From contig JBBILQ010000007.1 in NCBI GenBank assembly GCA_037444845.1, positions 6,067-70,066 of the forward strand: 64,000 bases of DNA, given 5' to 3'. The notes under the pieces are model-generated. The model saw nothing but the letters and a program-made list of their open reading frames with translations, was not told where the DNA came from and did no database searches. The position numbers and the translations under genes were made by a program. Of the stretch, positions 35,511-42,261 are shown piece after piece; the first letter of the stretch is position 1; every line of letters begins with the position of its first letter. Source of the stretch: Candidatus Aminicenantes bacterium (GTDB taxonomy: Bacteria; Acidobacteriota; Aminicenantia; Aminicenantales; UBA8522).

Positions 35511-35630
35511 GGTGAACGGTGAGGCTTGGGATTAAGTATCGGGTTCAGGTCTTCGTTCCGAAGCGTCAAATCACGATGCGGGATTCCGCAGCGCTCTGAC
35601 CTGCGTAAGCTCGCCGTTCACCGTTTTTTT
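35511..35630 (+). ncRNA. Candidate structured RNA / attenuator, family unknown
   Basis: 5' GGTGAACGGTGAGGCTT pairs with 3' AAGCTCGCCGTTCACC; inner CAGGTC/GACCTG stem and small hairpins; followed by T7. Confidence 0.5.
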
Positions 35631-35654
35631 GCCAAACGAAAAATGGGAGGAACG

Positions 35655-37022
35655 ATGGAAAAGCTCAAAACCATAACCCGGCGTGAATTCATAGGAAAAA
35701 CGGCCACGGGTGCGGCCGGCCTGATGATTGTGTCCAGGCATGTGCTCGGCGGCCGCGGCGTCCAGGCGCCCAGCGACACGCTCAACATCGGCTGTGTGGG
35801 CGTGTGGGGCAAAGGCGCTTCCGATATTGTCTCTGTGAGCACCGAGAACATCGTAGGGCTGTGCGAGGTGGATGATGAGATGATGGCCAAATTCCTGAAG
35901 AACGAGCGCCACACCGCCGAGCAGCAGGCCAAGTATGAGAAGGCAAACAAGTATAGAGATTTTCGCGAGATGTTAGACAAGGAAAAAAGCGTTGACGCCA
36001 TCGTCGTCAGCACCCCCGACCACACCCACGCCGTTATCGCCATGATGGCCATCAAGATGGGGAAGCACGTCTTCGTCCAGAAGCCGCTCACCCACACGGT
36101 TAACGAAGCGAGACTCCTGGCCCAGGAGGCGAAAAAGGCGGGCGTTGCCACCCAGATGGGGAATCAGGGACATGCTGGAGAAGGGGCGCGCCTGATCTGC
36201 GAGTGGATCTGGGATGGAGCCATTGGGCCGGTCGAGGAAGTTCATGTCTGGACCAACCGGCCCATCTGGCCGCAGGGTATTGACGCTCCTAAGGAGATAC
36301 CCTCCGTCCCGCCGACAATCGATTGGAACGTCTGGCTCGGTCCGGCGGCATGGCGGCCCTACCATCCGTCCTACCATCCTTTTGTCTGGCGCGGCTGGTG
36401 GGACTTCGGCACCGGAGCGTTAGGTGACATGGGTGCCCACCTCATCGATCAGCCATTCTGGGCGCTCGACCTCGGGCATCCTAAGTCCGTCCAGGCGAGC
36501 TCGACGAAATTCACCAGGGACTCCTATCCGATGGCTGAGATCGTCACTTACGAGTTCCCGGCCCGCGGCAAACTCCCGCCGGTTAAGCTTATCTGGTACG
36601 ACGGCGGGTTGATGCCGCCGAGACCCAAAGAGTTAGGAAGCGGCCGGATGATGGGCGACGAAGGCGGCGGCTGCCTTTTTGTGGGGAAGAAGGGACTGCT
36701 GATGTGCGGGACATACGGTGAGAATCCGCGTCTTGTTCCCGAAGATCTCATGCGAAGCTACAAGCGGCCGGCAAAGACCATCCCCCGTTCTCCCGGCATC
36801 CACGAGGAATGGGTCGCCGCCATCAAGGCAGGGAAAAAATCGACGACGGATTTCGAGTATTCAGGAAGATTGACCGAGGTCATGTTGTTAGCGAATATTG
36901 CCGTCCGGATGCAGGAGGCGAAGACAGTGCTCGAGTGGGATGGGGAGAAAATGGAGTTTACGAACCTCCCCGAGGCCAACAAGTTTCTGCACAAAGAGTA
37001 CCGGGCCGACTGGTCGTTGTAA
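35655..37022 (+). CDS. Tat-exported Gfo/Idh/MocA oxidoreductase
   Basis: TRREFIG Tat motif, TPDHTH, VQKPL, QMGNQ and GDMGAH. Confidence 0.9.
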   Translation: MEKLKTITRREFIGKTATGAAGLMIVSRHVLGGRGVQAPSDTLNIGCVGVWGKGASDIVSVSTENIVGLCEVDDEMMAKFLKNERHTAEQQAKYEKANKYRDFREMLDKEKSVDAIVVSTPDHTHAVIAMMAIKMGKHVFVQKPLTHTVNEARLLAQEAKKAGVATQMGNQGHAGEGARLICEWIWDGAIGPVEEVHVWTNRPIWPQGIDAPKEIPSVPPTIDWNVWLGPAAWRPYHPSYHPFVWRGWWDFGTGALGDMGAHLIDQPFWALDLGHPKSVQASSTKFTRDSYPMAEIVTYEFPARGKLPPVKLIWYDGGLMPPRPKELGSGRMMGDEGGGCLFVGKKGLLMCGTYGENPRLVPEDLMRSYKRPAKTIPRSPGIHEEWVAAIKAGKKSTTDFEYSGRLTEVMLLANIAVRMQEAKTVLEWDGEKMEFTNLPEANKFLHKEYRADWSL

Positions 37023-37035
37023 ACCCGAAGGAGAG

Positions 37036-37848
37036 ATGCAGATGCAGATGAAGGGAATGGGGACATTATATTCAATTTTCCTTCTTTTGCCCTGGTTTCT
37101 ATTTTTTTGCAGTCAGGGGAGCCAGACGAAAAAGGGGGGAGAGGAACAGCCTGCGCTGAGTGGGGTCCTTGGGTGGGCCATCCACGACCCGGCGAGACCC
37201 CTGCCTCCGGTCGTCGACCCCGGGCCAGGGGGGCCTCCAGCGCCGGCGCCGTCCGATGCGATCGTCCTTTTTAACGGCACTGATTTTTCTGAGTGGGAAG
37301 ACAGCAAAGGGGAACCGGTCAGATGGAAAGTTGAGGCTGGATGCATGGAAGTCGTGGCCAAGACGGGATCGATCCGGACGAAAAAAGCCTTCGGCGACAG
37401 TCAGGTTCATGTTGAGTGGGCGACGCCCGCAGCCGTCAGCGGCGAAGGCCAGGGGCGGGGAAACAGCGGCGTCTTCCTGATGAACACCTACGAGGTCCAG
37501 GTGTTAGATTCCTACGAGAACAGGACCTATGCCGACGGCATGGCTGGAGCCGTCTACGGTCAGTATCCGCCCCTGGTCAACGTCTGCAGGAAGCCCGGCG
37601 AATGGCAGACTTATGACGTTATTTTCAGGCGGCCGCGCTTTGATGCCGGGGGGAAGGTCATGAGCCCGGCGCGGATGACAGTATTTCACAACGGAATCCT
37701 TATCCATGACAATGTCGAACTCATTGGCCCGACGACGCACAAAATCCGGACGCCTTACATGCCGCATCCGGACAGGCTGCCGCTCTCTCTGCAGGAACAC
37801 GGCAACCCTGTCCGCTTCCGCAACATCTGGGTCCGCCCCCTCGAATAA
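37036..37848 (+). CDS. DUF1080 3-keto-disaccharide hydrolase/lyase domain lipoprotein
   Basis: PSDAIVLFNG, GNSGVFL, YEVQVLDS, PGEWQTYD and LQEHGNPVRFRNIW. Confidence 0.9.
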   Translation: MQMQMKGMGTLYSIFLLLPWFLFFCSQGSQTKKGGEEQPALSGVLGWAIHDPARPLPPVVDPGPGGPPAPAPSDAIVLFNGTDFSEWEDSKGEPVRWKVEAGCMEVVAKTGSIRTKKAFGDSQVHVEWATPAAVSGEGQGRGNSGVFLMNTYEVQVLDSYENRTYADGMAGAVYGQYPPLVNVCRKPGEWQTYDVIFRRPRFDAGGKVMSPARMTVFHNGILIHDNVELIGPTTHKIRTPYMPHPDRLPLSLQEHGNPVRFRNIWVRPLE

Positions 37849-38054
37849 TTCAGGGGACACTATATTATTTTTTATGGGCGACGGAAGGGCCACTTCTCGT
37901 GGCGATTTTGTCGAATCCCTTTGCTACCAAAAATCGCTTGCATGGTATTAAAAACAGCACATGACAATGAATTGCATTTGTAATCGTCAGAACGGATGAC
38001 CTCCTGGATAAGGGTGACTTGGCTGGCGAGCACGGTGTTTTGAAGGAGAAACGG

Positions 38055-38864
38055 ATGCAAAAAAAACATTTTCCATGGATCAGGTTCTGGGCTTTGGCCC
38101 AGGGGATTCTGATCTTATTGTCCTTCTCTTTAGCTCGGTTGTCTGCGTTAGGTTGGGCGGGAGAGCAACTCAAAAAGAAAGCGCTTTTTGTCTGGGGCGG
38201 CTGGGAAGGGCATGAGCCCAAGCAGTGCGTGGACATCTTTGCGCCCTGGCTGGCTGAACAGGGCTTTGAGGTGGAGATTTCGACAACCCTCGATTCCTAC
38301 TTGGACGAAAAGAAAATGAAGTCGCTCGACCTCGTCGTCCAGGTTTACACGATGTCCACGATCACTCCTCAACAGGAGAGGGGATTGCTCGAGGCCGTGA
38401 GGAGCGGAGTCGGACTGGCCGGCTGGCACGGCGGGCTGGCCGATGCCTTCCGAAGCAACACAGAATACCAGTTCATGGTCGGCGGCCAGTGGGTCGCTCA
38501 CCCGGGAGGCATCATCCCTTACGAGGTCAACATCATAGACCATAAGGACCCGATCACAGCCGGTCTCCGCGACTTTGCGATGAACTCCGAGCAGTACTAC
38601 ATGCACGTCGACCCGGCGAGCGAGGTGCTGGCCACGACGCGCTTTTCGGGAGAATACGCCCCGTGGATCAAGGGAGTTGTCATGCCGGTCGTCTGGAAGA
38701 AGATGTACGGACAAGGACGCGTTTTTTACACCTCGCTCGGCCACGTGGCCAAAGACTTTGACGTCCCAGAGGCGCGAGAAATCGTCAAGCGGGGAATGCT
38801 CTGGGCCGCCCGGGTCATTGGAGACGATGCACAACGTCATCCTGCGGGAAGGAAAGCCCTTTAA
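38055..38864 (+). CDS. ThuA-like (trehalose utilization) protein
   Basis: [29 protein letters not shown] and [10 protein letters not shown]. Confidence 0.88.
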
Positions 38865-38980
38865 TTTTCTGTTTTTTCCCTTCTTCTTTTTCTTCTCCTC
38901 CTCCGTTAGTTCCTCCTCTCGCTCTTCAGCCCCTCCAGACCGTTGCCGAAGTTGAGATTTTTTGCTAAACCCAATATTGC

Positions 38981-39010
38981 TTGACATTTACAATAGTTGT
39001 ATAATACAAT
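38981..39010 (+). promoter_or_regulatory. Promoter and MarR-type operator of marR-hgcAB
   Basis: TTGACA-18 bp-TACAAT; perfect inverted repeat TTGTA-TAA-TACAA (38997-39009) overlaps the -10. Confidence 0.65.
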
Positions 39011-39034
39011 GATATAAAGTTGAGGTGTTAGATA

Positions 39035-39514
39035 ATGGATATTCAGAAAATTCGCTGGCTGAGGGAAAAACTCAGACAGCTGGAAAGGGCAATAGACGGC
39101 TGTTTCAGGGCTGAGGGAGGCTGTTGCGGCCTGACTCTTTCTCAGTGCCATACCCTGATTGAGGTTGGGTACAAAGGTGAAGTCTCGCTCATAGACCTCG
39201 CCACAACCCTCAGCCTGGACCCGAGCACTCTCAGCCGGACAGTTAACGGCCTCGTCCTCGTCGGCCTGATCAGCAGGCTTACCAATGAAAAAGACAGGCG
39301 CTACGTGGTTATCTCGTTGACCGGGCAGGGGAAAAAGGTCTTTGAGGAGATTGAAGCCATTTTTAATCGCTACTATTCCGGAGTCCTTGGGCTTATCCCG
39401 GATGATAAAAAAGATCCGGTGGTCGATAGCATCGCTCTTTTTGCTGATGCAGTCAAAAAATATAACGACTCTGACGAAGGGTGCAAGAATGAACCTTCTG
39501 GGTGCGGAGGTTGA
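39035..39514 (+). CDS. MarR-family regulator, Cys-rich
   Basis: CCGLTLSQCH, DPSTLSRTV, DRRYVVISLT and C-terminal GC...GCGG. Confidence 0.88.
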   Translation: MDIQKIRWLREKLRQLERAIDGCFRAEGGCCGLTLSQCHTLIEVGYKGEVSLIDLATTLSLDPSTLSRTVNGLVLVGLISRLTNEKDRRYVVISLTGQGKKVFEEIEAIFNRYYSGVLGLIPDDKKDPVVDSIALFADAVKKYNDSDEGCKNEPSGCGG

Positions 39515-39519
39515 GCAGA

Positions 39520-40665
39520 ATGAGTAACGATAGTCAAGAGAAACGAGAGGTTGAGTGCTCTTGCGCCGATTGCTGCAGCGTTTCGGCCAGCAAGGACAGC
39601 GAGCAAAGCGATGAGCGATATGTCCATAAAAACGTCGGCTGGATAAAAAGCCAGCTTGAGACAGCATCCGGGCCGATTCCCGTCGTTTCCACACAGTTGA
39701 ACTGGAGAGACAGCTCAGGCTCTTTTGCCGTCCGCTTGGGCATAAAAAGGATGAATTATGCTGTCAGGCCGGGACTCTATGCCGTCGGTAATCCGAACTC
39801 GAGTTCATTCGTGTTTGTCTCGGCCAATTTCAAGTTGAGCTTTGACCGCTTGAGGAAAGAGCTCGACGGTGTCGATGGCTGGATTCTTGTCATCGATACA
39901 AAAGGCATCAACGTCTGGTGCGCTGCCGGGAAAGGGACTTTCGGGACCGGAGAAATTATAAGGAGGCTTGAGGCGACCGGCCTTCGGAGAGTCGTCTCTC
40001 ACCGGACGCTCATCCTGCCTCAGCTCGGGGCGCCGGGAGTTGCCGCTCATCAGGTGACAAAAGAGTCCGGGTTCAAAATTGTTTACGGGCCGGTGAGAGC
40101 CTCGGACATCAAGCTTTTTCTCGGCAAGGGCATGAAGGCTTCGGAAGAGATGAGGACGGTTCGTTTTAACCTGGCGGACAGGCTGAGCCTGACTCCGCTC
40201 GAGCTGGTCCTGACGCTAAAGTACGTGGGTGCAGCTGTTCTTATCCTTTTAATCCTTGACCTCCTCGGCCTCATTACCTTTTCCTGGAAAACAATCTATC
40301 CCTACCTTGGCGCTATCATTGCCGGCTGCGTTGGTGTGCCGGCGCTTCTGCCCTGGATTCCGGGCCCTGCCTTTGCCTGGAAAGGCTGGCTTTTAGGGAT
40401 GGCCTGGGCGCTGATTGTGAATGTTGAGCAGGGGTTGATTTTTTCAGGCTCTCCCGGCTGCGCGCAGGCCTGGCCGCGCGCAGCTTCCCATTTTCTCCTC
40501 CTGCCGGCTATCTCCGCCTTCCTGGCCATGAATTTTACGGGTTCATCCACATACACGTCTCTCTCGGGTGTTGTCCGGGAGATGAAGGCGGCTGTGCCAG
40601 CCATCCTTCTTTCGGCCGGACTGGGGCTCGCGTTTGTCGTCGCTTTGCTGGCTGGCGTTTTTTGA
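39520..40665 (+). CDS. hgcA: Mercury methylation corrinoid protein HgcA
   Basis: Cap-helix GINVWCAAGKGTFG, ILPQLGAPGV, YGPVRA, TM domain with NFTGSSTYTSLSGV; hgcB follows. Confidence 0.95.
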   Translation: MSNDSQEKREVECSCADCCSVSASKDSEQSDERYVHKNVGWIKSQLETASGPIPVVSTQLNWRDSSGSFAVRLGIKRMNYAVRPGLYAVGNPNSSSFVFVSANFKLSFDRLRKELDGVDGWILVIDTKGINVWCAAGKGTFGTGEIIRRLEATGLRRVVSHRTLILPQLGAPGVAAHQVTKESGFKIVYGPVRASDIKLFLGKGMKASEEMRTVRFNLADRLSLTPLELVLTLKYVGAAVLILLILDLLGLITFSWKTIYPYLGAIIAGCVGVPALLPWIPGPAFAWKGWLLGMAWALIVNVEQGLIFSGSPGCAQAWPRAASHFLLLPAISAFLAMNFTGSSTYTSLSGVVREMKAAVPAILLSAGLGLAFVVALLAGVF

Positions 40666-40678
40666 GGAGTCGCTTTCG

Positions 40679-40954
40679 ATGAGAGAACATCGCTATCTCA
40701 AGAATGTAACAACCCTGGCCTATGAACCGGCCAAGTGCACGGGTTGTGGTCTGTGCGAAGATGTCTGTCCGCATCGTGTATTCGGGCTTGAAAACGGCAA
40801 GGCCTGGGTCAGGGACCTCGACCTTTGCATGGAGTGCGGCGCCTGCTCTAAGAACTGTCCGTTTGCGGCGATCACTGTCCGCGCCGGAGTCGGGTGCGCC
40901 TGGGCGATCATGGCTTCTGAGCTCCGGGGAAAAAAAGAAGTCGCCTGCGGCTAA
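40679..40954 (+). CDS. hgcB: Mercury methylation 2[4Fe-4S] ferredoxin HgcB
   Basis: RYLKNVTTL, CTGCGLCEDVCPH, CMECGACSKNCP and GVGCA. Confidence 0.95.
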   Translation: MREHRYLKNVTTLAYEPAKCTGCGLCEDVCPHRVFGLENGKAWVRDLDLCMECGACSKNCPFAAITVRAGVGCAWAIMASELRGKKEVACG

Positions 40955-42261
40955 GAAAGGGTGCCCTTTTTAATGATGTCCTCCATGATGTCGGCGAAGG
41001 TGTCGATTTCCCTGACTGATAATGAGATGTTCACGACAATCCGTATCCCGTCGATCAACCCGTCCGGATGTTTTACCGTCGAAACGACAATCCCCCACTT
41101 GTCAAGCAGATGCTCGGCGAGCTTGTCCATGTCCAGGCCCTCAACGCCGAAGGTGGCGATAGCGCAAGATTCGGCCGGGTCAAGAGACGAGTAGAACCTC
41201 ACCCGCGGGTGCGCGCGAAGGCGGTTAGCCCAGCGCTCTTTCAGGTATTGAAGGCGCGCCGATTTCCGCTCGATGCCGATGCCCTCGTTGAAGGTGATCG
41301 CCTCGGCGATGGCGATGCGGTTCGCCGGTGTGCGTGTCCCCACGTCCTCGAAGCGGCGGATATCATTCGGCCTGTCCGTCCAGGGGGGCGTCAGCGGCCA
41401 AACCTTGGGGATTCTATCCCTGGGAATTCGCACGAACCCGTTTCCGGGCGGCGCCATCAGCCATTTATGCAGGCTTGCCGTGTAGTAGTCGCAGCCGAGG
41501 TCGGCGAGCTTGAAGGGCACGTGCATGAAGCCGTGGGCGCCGTCGCAGAGCACTTCGATGCCTCGCGAGTGGGCCATGTCCGAGAGCCGGCGGACAGGCG
41601 CCATCTGACCCGTCCAGTGAGTCATGTGGCAGAAATGAATCACCTTCGTCCGCGGCGTCACCTGCTCCGCCACCAGGTCGTAGAACTTGTCGAGCGGCAC
41701 GGGCGGAGATGGAAGAGGGACGATCTTGAGAACAATGCCCTCGCGCCTCTCGCGCTGCTTCCAGGAGCTGAGCAACCGCGGGTAGTCCTGGTTGGTGATG
41801 ACCACCTCGTCGCCCCGCTTCAGGTCGATTCCCATGATGGGAATTTGGCCTGCCTCTGTTCCACCGCGGCAAATGACGAGCTCTTCAGGATCGCAGCCCA
41901 GGTGGAATGCCAGCCGCCGCCGGCAGCTCTCGATTTCTTTGGCCAGGATGGCCATCGAGTGAGCGGCGGCGTTGCCCGAAAACGAGCTGTGCCGGATGAC
42001 AGCTTCCTGGACAATGCGGAGACCGGGCTGGATGGTGCCGTTGTTCAGGTTGATGATGTTGCGGTCTTCGGTGAAGGCCTGCAGGACTTGGAACCAGAAG
42101 TCTTCGTCCGAGGCGACCTCTTCGGGACTGAGATCGGCCCTATCACGGCCTGCCTCGAAAATGCGTTCGAGAACGCTGTGAGGAGTGCCGGCCAGCACGC
42201 CAACGCCGGCGGCACAGCTCAGGAGAAAATCCCTTCTGTTTAAATCACGTCCATTCCACAT
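40951..42261 (-). CDS. Tat-exported class V PLP aminotransferase (isopenicillin N epimerase-like)
   Basis: NRRDFL, LNNG, DGAH and SLHKWL. Confidence 0.85.
   Translation of the reverse strand: MWNGRDLNRRDFLLSCAAGVGVLAGTPHSVLERIFEAGRDRADLSPEEVASDEDFWFQVLQAFTEDRNIINLNNGTIQPGLRIVQEAVIRHSSFSGNAAAHSMAILAKEIESCRRRLAFHLGCDPEELVICRGGTEAGQIPIMGIDLKRGDEVVITNQDYPRLLSSWKQRERREGIVLKIVPLPSPPVPLDKFYDLVAEQVTPRTKVIHFCHMTHWTGQMAPVRRLSDMAHSRGIEVLCDGAHGFMHVPFKLADLGCDYYTASLHKWLMAPPGNGFVRIPRDRIPKVWPLTPPWTDRPNDIRRFEDVGTRTPANRIAIAEAITFNEGIGIERKSARLQYLKERWANRLRAHPRVRFYSSLDPAESCAIATFGVEGLDMDKLAEHLLDKWGIVVSTVKHPDGLIDGIRIVVNISLSVREIDTFADIMEDIIKKGTLS

Follow-up and report, generated by a model that had tools for sequence, protein, structure and literature searches.

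The window analysed here, a stretch of 64,000 nucleotides (nt) from contig JBBILQ010000007.1 of a Candidatus Aminicenantes bacterium, carries the mercury methylation genes hgcA and hgcB immediately downstream of a gene for a cysteine-rich regulator of the MarR family. The locus spans positions 38981-40954 on the + strand, in the order sigma-70-like promoter, palindrome, marR, hgcA, hgcB. Regulators of the same subfamily, with the same cysteines and the same palindrome in front of their genes, accompany hgcAB in several phyla, and related regulators that share this operator adjoin arsenite methyltransferase genes. Taken together, these observations make it probable, in our assessment, that the locus is an autoregulated marR-hgcA-hgcB operon in which a repressor akin to the arsenic-responsive MarR_ars proteins would be released by a thiophilic metalloid.

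The marR-hgcA-hgcB locus

The features of the locus are the following.

38981-38986, +, -35 hexamer TTGACA (promoter scan); a TTGAC-like hexamer recurs at the corresponding position in most related loci
38989-38993, +, extra operator half-site TACAA (read from the sequence)
38997-39009, +, predicted MarR dimer site, the perfect palindrome TTGTA-TAA-TACAA; the only exact match in the window
39005-39010, +, -10 hexamer TACAAT (promoter scan), also serving as the palindrome's right arm
39022-39027, +, Shine-Dalgarno sequence GAGGTG for marR (read from the sequence), 7 nt 5' of the ATG at 39035
39035-39514, +, marR, 159 amino acids; Pfam MarR, PF01047, 43.7 bits against a cut-off of 24.6
39122-39127, +, marR codons for C30/C31
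39146-39151, +, marR codons for C38-H39
39482-39484, +, marR codon for C150
39503-39505, +, marR codon for C157
39506-39510, +, Shine-Dalgarno sequence GGAGG for hgcA, located in the 3'-terminal part of marR, 9 nt 5' of the ATG at 39520
39520-40665, +, hgcA, 381 amino acids; NCBIfam NF040863, 448.2 bits against a cut-off of 275
40664-40669, +, Shine-Dalgarno sequence GAGGAG for hgcB, overlapping the hgcA stop codon
40679-40954, +, hgcB, 91 amino acids; NCBIfam NF040864, 120.9 bits against a cut-off of 99

The promoter agrees with the consensus in 11 of the 12 positions, with an 18-nt spacer between the -35 and the -10, and the palindrome lies over the -10, where a preliminary description of this locus, made by reading the sequence, had placed it. 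The additional TACAA half-site, together with the TTGTA at 38997, forms a second, overlapping inverted repeat. Because the -10 hexamer is at the same time the right arm of the palindrome, a bound repressor would cover the -10. Judged from the window alone, the palindrome is at chance level, with one match at no more than one mismatch against 0.36 expected and at least one such match in 32 of 100 shuffled sequences; its significance comes from the comparison across relatives. The tight spacing of the three genes, also part of the preliminary description, is borne out by gaps of 5 nt between marR and hgcA and 13 nt between hgcA and hgcB, with each product assigned to its family above the respective cut-off. 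The position of the hgcA Shine-Dalgarno sequence within the 3' end of marR, along with the start-stop overlaps that are common in relatives, suggests translational coupling of marR and hgcA.

Both downstream genes score above curated equivalog cut-offs and are thereby identified as hgcA and hgcB; methylation of mercury by their products is a prediction from this identity. The HgcA match spans positions 1-321 of the 325 positions of the profile, the Pfam CdhD domain is recognized as well, and a search of the genome yielded a single hgcA. The hallmark of HgcA is a cap-helix motif, N(V/I)WCA(A/G)GK, that includes the cobalt-ligating cysteine. The motif NVWCAAGK reported in the preliminary description is indeed present at amino acids 131-138 (39910-39933), with Cys134 within it. 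The C-terminal membrane domain comprises 4-5 hydrophobic segments within amino acids 224-381 (by a crude hydropathy measure, windows of at least 1.5 cover amino acids 224-284, 321-339 and 355-381). HgcB, likewise correctly recognized by its CMECGAC, is a 2x[4Fe-4S] ferredoxin with two CX2CX2CX3C motifs (starting at amino acids 20 and 50, one of them including CMECGAC), Cys73 and the C-terminal Cys90.

The termini of both methylation proteins are marked by cysteines. The N-terminal tail of HgcA contains CSCADCC (amino acids 1-27, 39520-39600), and Aminicenantes relatives show SCECxxxCCG in this region. At least two cysteines precede the conserved core in 50 of 65 MarR-linked HgcA proteins; those from loci with spirochaete titles have tails almost devoid of cysteine (L052 has one). 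The tail may be a thiol relay or may bind a metal. The HgcB tail has a single cysteine in the window protein and CC or CxC in 39 of 69 relatives, a C-terminal cysteine being found in 68 of the 69.

The regulator itself combines the cluster C30 C31 G32 ... Q37 C38 H39 with the tail EGCKNEPSGCGG, for a total of five cysteines and one histidine per monomer. The AlphaFold model (predicted local distance difference test score, pLDDT, 82.4) has the usual MarR topology of six helices and a wing, in which C30/C31 fall in the loop connecting helices 1 and 2, modelled with low confidence, C38-H39 are located at the start of helix 2, and the final nine residues are disordered. The Foldseek matches listed are all MarR proteins (best query TM score, TMq, 0.74-0.77), including the zinc sensors AdcR and ZitR and the heme sensor PefR. 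The hidden Markov model (HMM) of the AdcR family gives a weak match to the window protein (E=1.1e-4). Among solved structures, none with this cysteine motif was found, the best match being Rv1404 (E=3.6e-14).

Conservation of the cassette, the cysteines and the operator

A protein search retrieved 132 relatives of the MarR protein; those with names bear the titles Candidatus Aminicenantes, Aminicenantales or Desulfaltia. The nearest relatives come from metagenome-assembled genomes (MAGs) titled Candidatus Aminicenantes, which fits the earlier surmise of a probably uncultured lineage. We then scanned one genome per species, which gave 113 MarR relatives and 80 retained loci, and called a downstream hgcA on the same strand by tblastn with the window proteins. 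According to the record titles, the 80 loci belong to Aminicenantes, other Acidobacteriota, Bacillota/Syntrophomonadaceae, Spirochaetota, Desulfovibrionaceae/delta-proteobacteria and some single records; the regulator is spread over several phyla and is not peculiar to the lineage of the window.

In 71 of the 80 loci, a near-full-length hgcA lies directly 3' of the MarR gene on the same strand. Three loci have a partial hgcA, which runs off the contig (L013), is a remnant (L026) or is fragmented (L030), and six have none (L010, L011, L028, L050, L074 and L078), two of these also lacking the Cys pair. The two open reading frames (ORFs) overlap in 49 of 66 marR/hgcA pairs, 21 of them by exactly 4 nt, and are separated by 0-60 nt in 15 and by more in two, counts that are approximate given the choices of start codons. 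No flanking gene family is common to more than six of the 80 loci, and those six are close kin that share sugar-oxidoreductase genes; the marR-hgcAB cassette is therefore the only conserved unit, and the neighboring genes offer no hint of the ligand. No recurrent ars gene was found in the flanks of the 80 loci. Pairwise protein distances correlate between MarR and HgcA (r=0.82) and between HgcA and HgcB (r=0.75), which fits co-inheritance but is inseparable from species relatedness. Judging by gene order, this MarR subfamily is a dedicated partner of hgcAB across phyla.

Several loci depart from this arrangement. In L010 (titled Aminicenantales), the ThuA-like upstream gene, marR and the operator are kept, and no hgcAB is present in the 1.5 kb available downstream. 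The MarR tail cysteines are lost in L026, with its hgcA remnant, and in L028, which has no hgcA. Together with L030, which is possibly an assembly error, L010, L026 and L028 look like stages of cassette decay. L068 (titled Selenomonadales) has a second, more divergent MarR-like gene between the Cys-rich marR and hgcA.

The Cys-rich MarR with CCG...QCH that had been noticed in the window proved to be typical of its relatives. Across 27 homologs, C30, C31, G32, Q37, C38 and H39 never vary, and a C-terminal cysteine is nearly invariant; in 38 cross-phylum homologs, C30, C31, G32, Q37 and C38 remain invariant and H39 is conserved in at least 90%. Cross-phylum invariance extends to D62, S64, T65 and R68 of the recognition helix. 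Among 79 MarR ORFs, the pattern CCGx4QCH is found in 69 and the more relaxed CC-x6-C in 73; at least one cysteine occurs within the last 30 residues in 75, and a vicinal pair in 57.

The operator was compared in the 120 nt 5' of marR in 79 regions, namely, the window and 78 loci. At its best match, TTGTA-N3-TACAA is free of mismatches in 25 regions and has one in 21, two in 25, three in seven and five in one. Thus, 46 of the 79 regions contain the palindrome with at most one mismatch, against about 0.7 expected (the expectations after composition shuffling are 0.02, 0.68 and 8.1 for zero, one and two mismatches, respectively), a closeness reached by just 0.14% of 4200 further 120-nt windows taken from these loci. 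In most loci, the palindrome starts 15-16 nt past a TTGAC-type -35. When 33 loci were placed in an anchored alignment, the consensus was TTGTATaATACAATTATTGTATaaTacAAT, in which two palindromes, 16 bp apart, have half-sites in common, and individual promoters display arrays of alternating TACAAT and TTGTA half-sites. The left arm is located in the promoter spacer, free of promoter constraint, and its conservation is therefore the main sign of a bound protein. The visible operator of the preliminary description is thus supported as a predicted binding site by a palindrome conserved at a fixed promoter position across relatives. When the 2.75-Mb genome was scanned with a position weight matrix (PWM) of the site, the marR promoter ranked first with 30.1 bits, followed by two sites of 23.9 and 21.8 bits, both inside ORFs; no convincing further site that would point to a second regulon member was found in this genome, so that the regulator looks local.

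We also approached the association from the side of hgcA. Among 401 genomes of the phylum of the window, 21 encode an HgcA above the cut-off, and in 11 of these, a gene for this MarR is directly upstream. The other 10 loci include one with an ArsR-like gene (CC...C) and one with a TetR-like gene (two Cys pairs), and the rest show no regulator. By eye, these two regulators (L097 and L100) are an ArsR-like protein with GCCPESTVSAC in one case and a TetR-like protein with two CC pairs in the other, which suggests convergent recruitment of thiol-rich regulators, with one example of each. A second sample consisted of 401 genomes of the phylum of L073 (titled delta proteobacterium), 119 of which have an HgcA above the cut-off. 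The 30 best-scoring of these 119 loci comprise one with the canonical MarR, eight with a sister MarR, two with other Cys-bearing MarR-like genes and 19 without an adjacent MarR match. The sister MarR, directly upstream of hgcA in L111, L112, L116, L120, L126, L128, L129 and L130, is characterized by RCC[C/R]QD..FC[E/G]GVTFHQF, with the cysteines moved to helix 1, and by a CSCC-type tail. In seven of these eight loci, a GTTGTA-N3-TACAAC site lies 10-11 nt after TTGACA; in L120, the start codon was set too far upstream. Thus, the positions of the cysteines differ between the hgcAB-linked MarR clades, and the cysteine richness and the operator persist.

The surroundings of the cassette in the window can be described briefly. 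Upstream lies a sugar-oxidation cluster (35526-38864) encoding a GFO/IDH/MocA oxidoreductase with a twin-arginine-like leader, a 3-keto-disaccharide hydrolase and a ThuA-like protein; such genes likewise precede marR in six related loci and have no evident tie to hgcAB. Downstream, the stop codon of hgcB (+) overlaps, at 40951-40954, that of a convergent gene (-) for a 436-amino-acid protein resembling class-V aminotransferases and cysteine desulfurases. No intrinsic terminator was found between these two genes.

Relatives adjoining arsenic genes

A profile of 38 hgcAB-linked MarR proteins was searched against the 401 genomes of the phylum of the window, 130 of which contain some MarR match (a raw tally that includes genome G152). 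The top tier consists of 13 matches of at least 160 bits, namely, the 11 hgcAB-linked proteins and two that precede a generic S-adenosylmethionine (SAM) methyltransferase gene. These two, L151 (genome G047) and L152 (genome G013), score 162-165 bits, carry the motif CFCxGVSMAQCH and are followed, instead of hgcAB, by a class-I SAM methyltransferase that is weakly DVU_1556-like, below the cut-off. In G013, hgcAB is present on another contig, without a MarR gene.

After a gap in the scores, a second tier of 17 loci follows at 85-107 bits, of which 16 were examined (L163, from G152, was left out of all analyses). In 10 of the 16, the MarR gene adjoins an arsenite methyltransferase gene, arsM, above the cut-off (NF008823, 272-334 bits against 263), and in one more, the adjoining arsenite methyltransferase is below it (239.8 bits). 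L157 and L165 have, by eye, an arsM-like neighbor or fusion, the fusion in L165 being doubtful given that the ORF runs through a stretch of X. In L161, MarR is fused to ArsN2, an arsenic-resistance acetyltransferase (147.6 bits against 125). The remaining two loci are unrelated, with neither the Cys pair nor any ars gene.

The 12 arsM-linked MarR proteins that were aligned resemble the hgcAB-linked ones in the layout of their cysteines. A Cys pair is located in, or within one column of, the C30/C31 positions in 11 of them, L160 having a single cysteine; a cysteine corresponds to C38 in seven, and tail cysteines are present in 10. Five of the 12 have another residue in place of C38, and the H39 position is never His in this set (Tyr, Gln, Ala or Met instead). 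The promoters match as well: TTGTA-N3-TACAA is exact in six of the 12 and has one mismatch in two more. In a quick tree, which includes no named MarR_ars sequence and in which the two outgroups are long-branched and misplaced, the sister hgcAB-linked clade groups with the arsM-linked proteins with a support of 89. The regulators next to hgcAB and those next to arsM are kin and, in most cases, share the same operator.

Regulatory model, alternatives and known systems

The founding member of MarR_ars, AdMarR_ars of Achromobacter deleyi As-55, offers the only tested counterpart. According to the passages available from Yu et al. 2021 (bioRxiv 10.1101/2021.08.12.456183), this protein has conserved Cys36, Cys37 and Cys157 and binds its own promoter and that of arsV; As(III) and Sb(III) release it in electrophoretic mobility shift assays (EMSA), the Cys-to-Ser variants are unresponsive, and deletion of the gene makes arsV constitutive. 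A parallel comes from Pseudodesulfovibrio mercurii ND132, in which, as stated in the available text of Gionfriddo et al. (bioRxiv 10.1101/2022.10.17.512643), hgcAB is under the control of the co-transcribed, ArsR-like ArsR2 (DND132_1054) and is induced by arsenic.

By analogy, we propose the following mechanism. A MarR dimer would bind the TTGTA-N3-TACAA palindrome plus the flanking half-site; given that the palindrome's right arm doubles as the -10 hexamer, this binding would block RNA polymerase. The vicinal pair C30/C31 in the loop ahead of helix 2, C38-H39 where helix 2 begins and one or both of C150 and C157 in the flexible tail would together form a thiolate site, to be occupied by a soft trivalent metalloid, most likely As(III), Sb(III) or methylarsenite, with Hg(II) as a possible ligand. 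The ligand would distort the dimer and free the DNA, whereupon marR, hgcA and hgcB would be transcribed together. Arsenic-type metalloids lead the list of candidate ligands because of the responses of AdMarR_ars and the arsenic induction of hgcAB in P. mercurii ND132. The preliminary description had suggested that a thiol- or metal(loid)-sensing MarR represses hgcAB, and with the dedicated synteny, the conservation of the cysteines and the operator, and arsM-linked kin of the same layout, this appears to be the best-supported reading of the locus.

A number of observations weigh against the proposed arsenic-type repressor. The vicinal Cys pair in the tail is not universal (57 of 79 ORFs), and four of the 79 ORFs have no tail cysteine at all. 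Conservation of the operator is partly owed to its role as the -10 hexamer, and mirror-image covariation of its arms is weak: A..T at operator positions 1/13 occurs in five sites, all of them in related genomes, where about 1.5 would be expected. The 10 of 21 hgcA-bearing genomes without the MarR gene indicate that the regulator is dispensable for hgcAB. As for the kinship, the quick tree separates the window clade from the arsM-linked proteins with a support of 99, and we infer via the arsM-linked stand-ins that the window protein is a member of the MarR_ars group or of a branch adjacent to it. The invariant C38-H39 is absent from many arsM-linked relatives, and therefore, the ligand may differ from arsenite. 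Zinc is a co-repressor in AdcR and ZitR, so that the sign of the response is unreadable from the MarR fold. Among the sequencing runs listed as containing window positions 38800-41100, there is no RNA run, the only one being a DNA run that may stem from the source sample.

One alternative is an operon that senses its own substrate, with the same repressor and operator but with Hg(II) or another soft metal ion as the inducer, the MarR_ars scaffold having been re-tuned by C38-H39. These two residues hardly vary, if at all, within the hgcAB-linked clade, whereas the 12 arsM-linked proteins include five that lack C38 and are all without His at H39; furthermore, the cysteine tails of HgcA (50 of 65 with at least two) and HgcB (68 of 69 with the C-terminal one) would suit a thiol relay for Hg(II), and Mer proteins typically handle Hg(II) with vicinal Cys pairs. 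We nevertheless consider this option unlikely. Affinity alone rarely lets thiolate sites discriminate; according to the published view, mercury does not induce hgcAB, a view that comes from organisms lacking this MarR; and the only tested relative answers As(III) and Sb(III), the available passages on it reporting no test of mercury. A role of the cysteines in sensing redox state or oxidants through reversible disulfides, in the style of 2-Cys OhrR, would tie the expression of the oxygen-sensitive HgcAB to anoxia. An N-terminal cysteine near helix 1/2 combined with a C-terminal one resembles 2-Cys OhrR, OhrR and other thiol-switch MarR proteins are among the sequence and fold relatives, and all carriers appear, by their record titles, to be anaerobes. 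The vicinal pair plus the tail pair is, however, the metalloid-site signature of the tested MarR_ars rather than that of peroxide sensors, as far as the available description goes, and the same module drives the arsenic-specific genes arsM and ArsN2, which makes redox sensing quite improbable.

One could also imagine that the Cys/His cluster is constitutively loaded with a metal or an Fe-S cluster, which would serve a structural purpose or be a co-repressor like Zn(II) in AdcR and ZitR. In this scheme, DNA would be bound by the liganded form, and loss of the ligand would induce the operon. ZitR is activated for DNA binding by zinc, as mentioned in the accessible part of Yu et al. 2021 (bioRxiv 10.1101/2021.08.12.456183). 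AdcR and ZitR are fold neighbors of the window protein, the entry for the ZitR mutant 'C30A H42A' places ligands in the same region of the chain, the AdcR-family HMM matches, if weakly (E=1.1e-4), and five cysteines and one histidine per monomer are at hand. The ligands of AdcR are mostly His and Glu, in contrast to the mostly Cys residues here. Moreover, the tail cysteines vary in number and position among the 79 ORFs, a better fit for a flexible sensor than for a fixed cluster, and the tested relative, as described in the passages available, is released by its ligand and not activated, so that we see only a slim chance for this scheme. Finally, the palindrome might be nothing but a conserved promoter, with MarR a mere neighbor that has no control over hgcAB. 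Such a view could invoke the identity of the right arm with the -10 hexamer, the chance-level occurrence of the palindrome in the window alone and the 10 of 21 sampled hgcA loci of the phylum without MarR. It is scarcely credible in the face of a left arm that lies in an unconstrained spacer and yet is conserved across phyla, a site that travels with MarR whether arsM or hgcAB comes next, the start-stop overlaps of marR and hgcA, and the loss of the MarR tail cysteines where hgcA decayed (L026 and L028).

A broader proposition, which we regard as possible but doubtful, goes beyond the metalloid-released repressor. A single module of Cys-rich MarR and TTGTA-N3-TACAA over the -10 would be interchangeable in front of arsM and hgcAB, HgcAB would be part of a response to arsenic/antimony-type metalloids across most phyla, and its native role would be to methylate or handle such a metalloid or a related thiophile, with the methylation of mercury as a side reaction. 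The unrelated Cys-rich regulators that precede hgcAB elsewhere, ArsR2 as well as the ArsR-like and TetR-like proteins described above, point the same way.

The inducer of hgcAB and the purpose of HgcAB are treated as open questions of mercury biogeochemistry in the parts of the recent literature available to us (PMC10349881; bioRxiv 10.1101/2022.10.17.512643). The marR-hgcAB class is widespread, with at least 71 species-level genomes in several phyla, and its regulator, putative ligand residues and operator can be named from sequence. The characterized relative offers a ready assay, EMSA and a green fluorescent protein (GFP) reporter with As(III)/Sb(III), which turns the induction of methylmercury genes into a question for the bench. 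The module shared between arsM and hgcAB provides independent, cross-phylum support for the arsenic link, which has so far been demonstrated in one strain of Desulfovibrionaceae. Gating by MarR could explain why the abundance of hgcA predicts methylation poorly. If HgcAB does take part in a metalloid response, natural production of methylmercury would be gated by arsenic-type signals.

The adjacency of a regulator to hgcAB is already in print. In the text available from McDaniel et al. 2020, an unnamed, conserved putative transcriptional regulator is reported immediately upstream of hgcAB in 112 genomes, with transcripts that track hgcAB in some groups and with no family or motifs given. It shares with the window-type MarR the position and the cross-phylum spread along with horizontally moving hgcAB, and is probably the same protein. 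The five example genomes shown there include two permafrost Acidobacteria, and two of our loci (L070 and L076) are from Acidobacteria MAGs named fen_; that they come from the same study is a guess. Zhang et al. 2023 (PMC10349881), as far as its accessible text goes, notes that, in two methylators in culture, MarR-family genes lie upstream of hgcA. Neither of these reports, in its accessible portions, analyzes the regulator at the level of its family, describes a Cys motif or an operator, or relates it to the regulators of arsenic genes. Yu et al. 2021 (bioRxiv 10.1101/2021.08.12.456183) define MarR_ars, and hgcAB is not mentioned in the passages seen. A literature search that covered few subscription journals retrieved no paper that joins MarR_ars to hgcAB or gives CCGx4QCH or the operator; the link to MarR_ars, the Cys motif and the operator, which we did not find in print, are apparently new.

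With respect to regulators of known function, AdcR and ZitR are fold neighbors that resemble the window protein as metal-sensing MarR proteins whose ligands come from the region of helix 2 and the loop that joins it to helix 1, but they employ zinc as a co-repressor and have neither a vicinal Cys pair nor a Cys tail. ArsR2 of P. mercurii ND132 is similar in that a gene for a Cys-rich winged-helix repressor directly precedes hgcAB and, by our inference for the window, in the logic of a metalloid sensor. Going by what is available of that report, it belongs to the unrelated ArsR/SmtB family (PF01022) with a four-Cys CxC...CxC arrangement and is reported only in Desulfovibrionaceae, whereas the window-type MarR spans several phyla. 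The closest parallel in design is AdMarR_ars, with which the window protein shares the MarR fold, a vicinal Cys pair near residues 30-37 together with a C-terminal cysteine (an equivalence drawn from the published numbering), and a site in its own promoter, here predicted to mediate autoregulation, directly before the regulated gene, so far as the published passages at hand describe it. Unlike the known MarR_ars genes, however, the window marR precedes hgcAB rather than arsV, arsN, arsP or arsM, and the hgcAB-linked clade adds the invariant C38-H39 and, often, a Cys pair in the tail, and forms a branch of its own in the quick tree.

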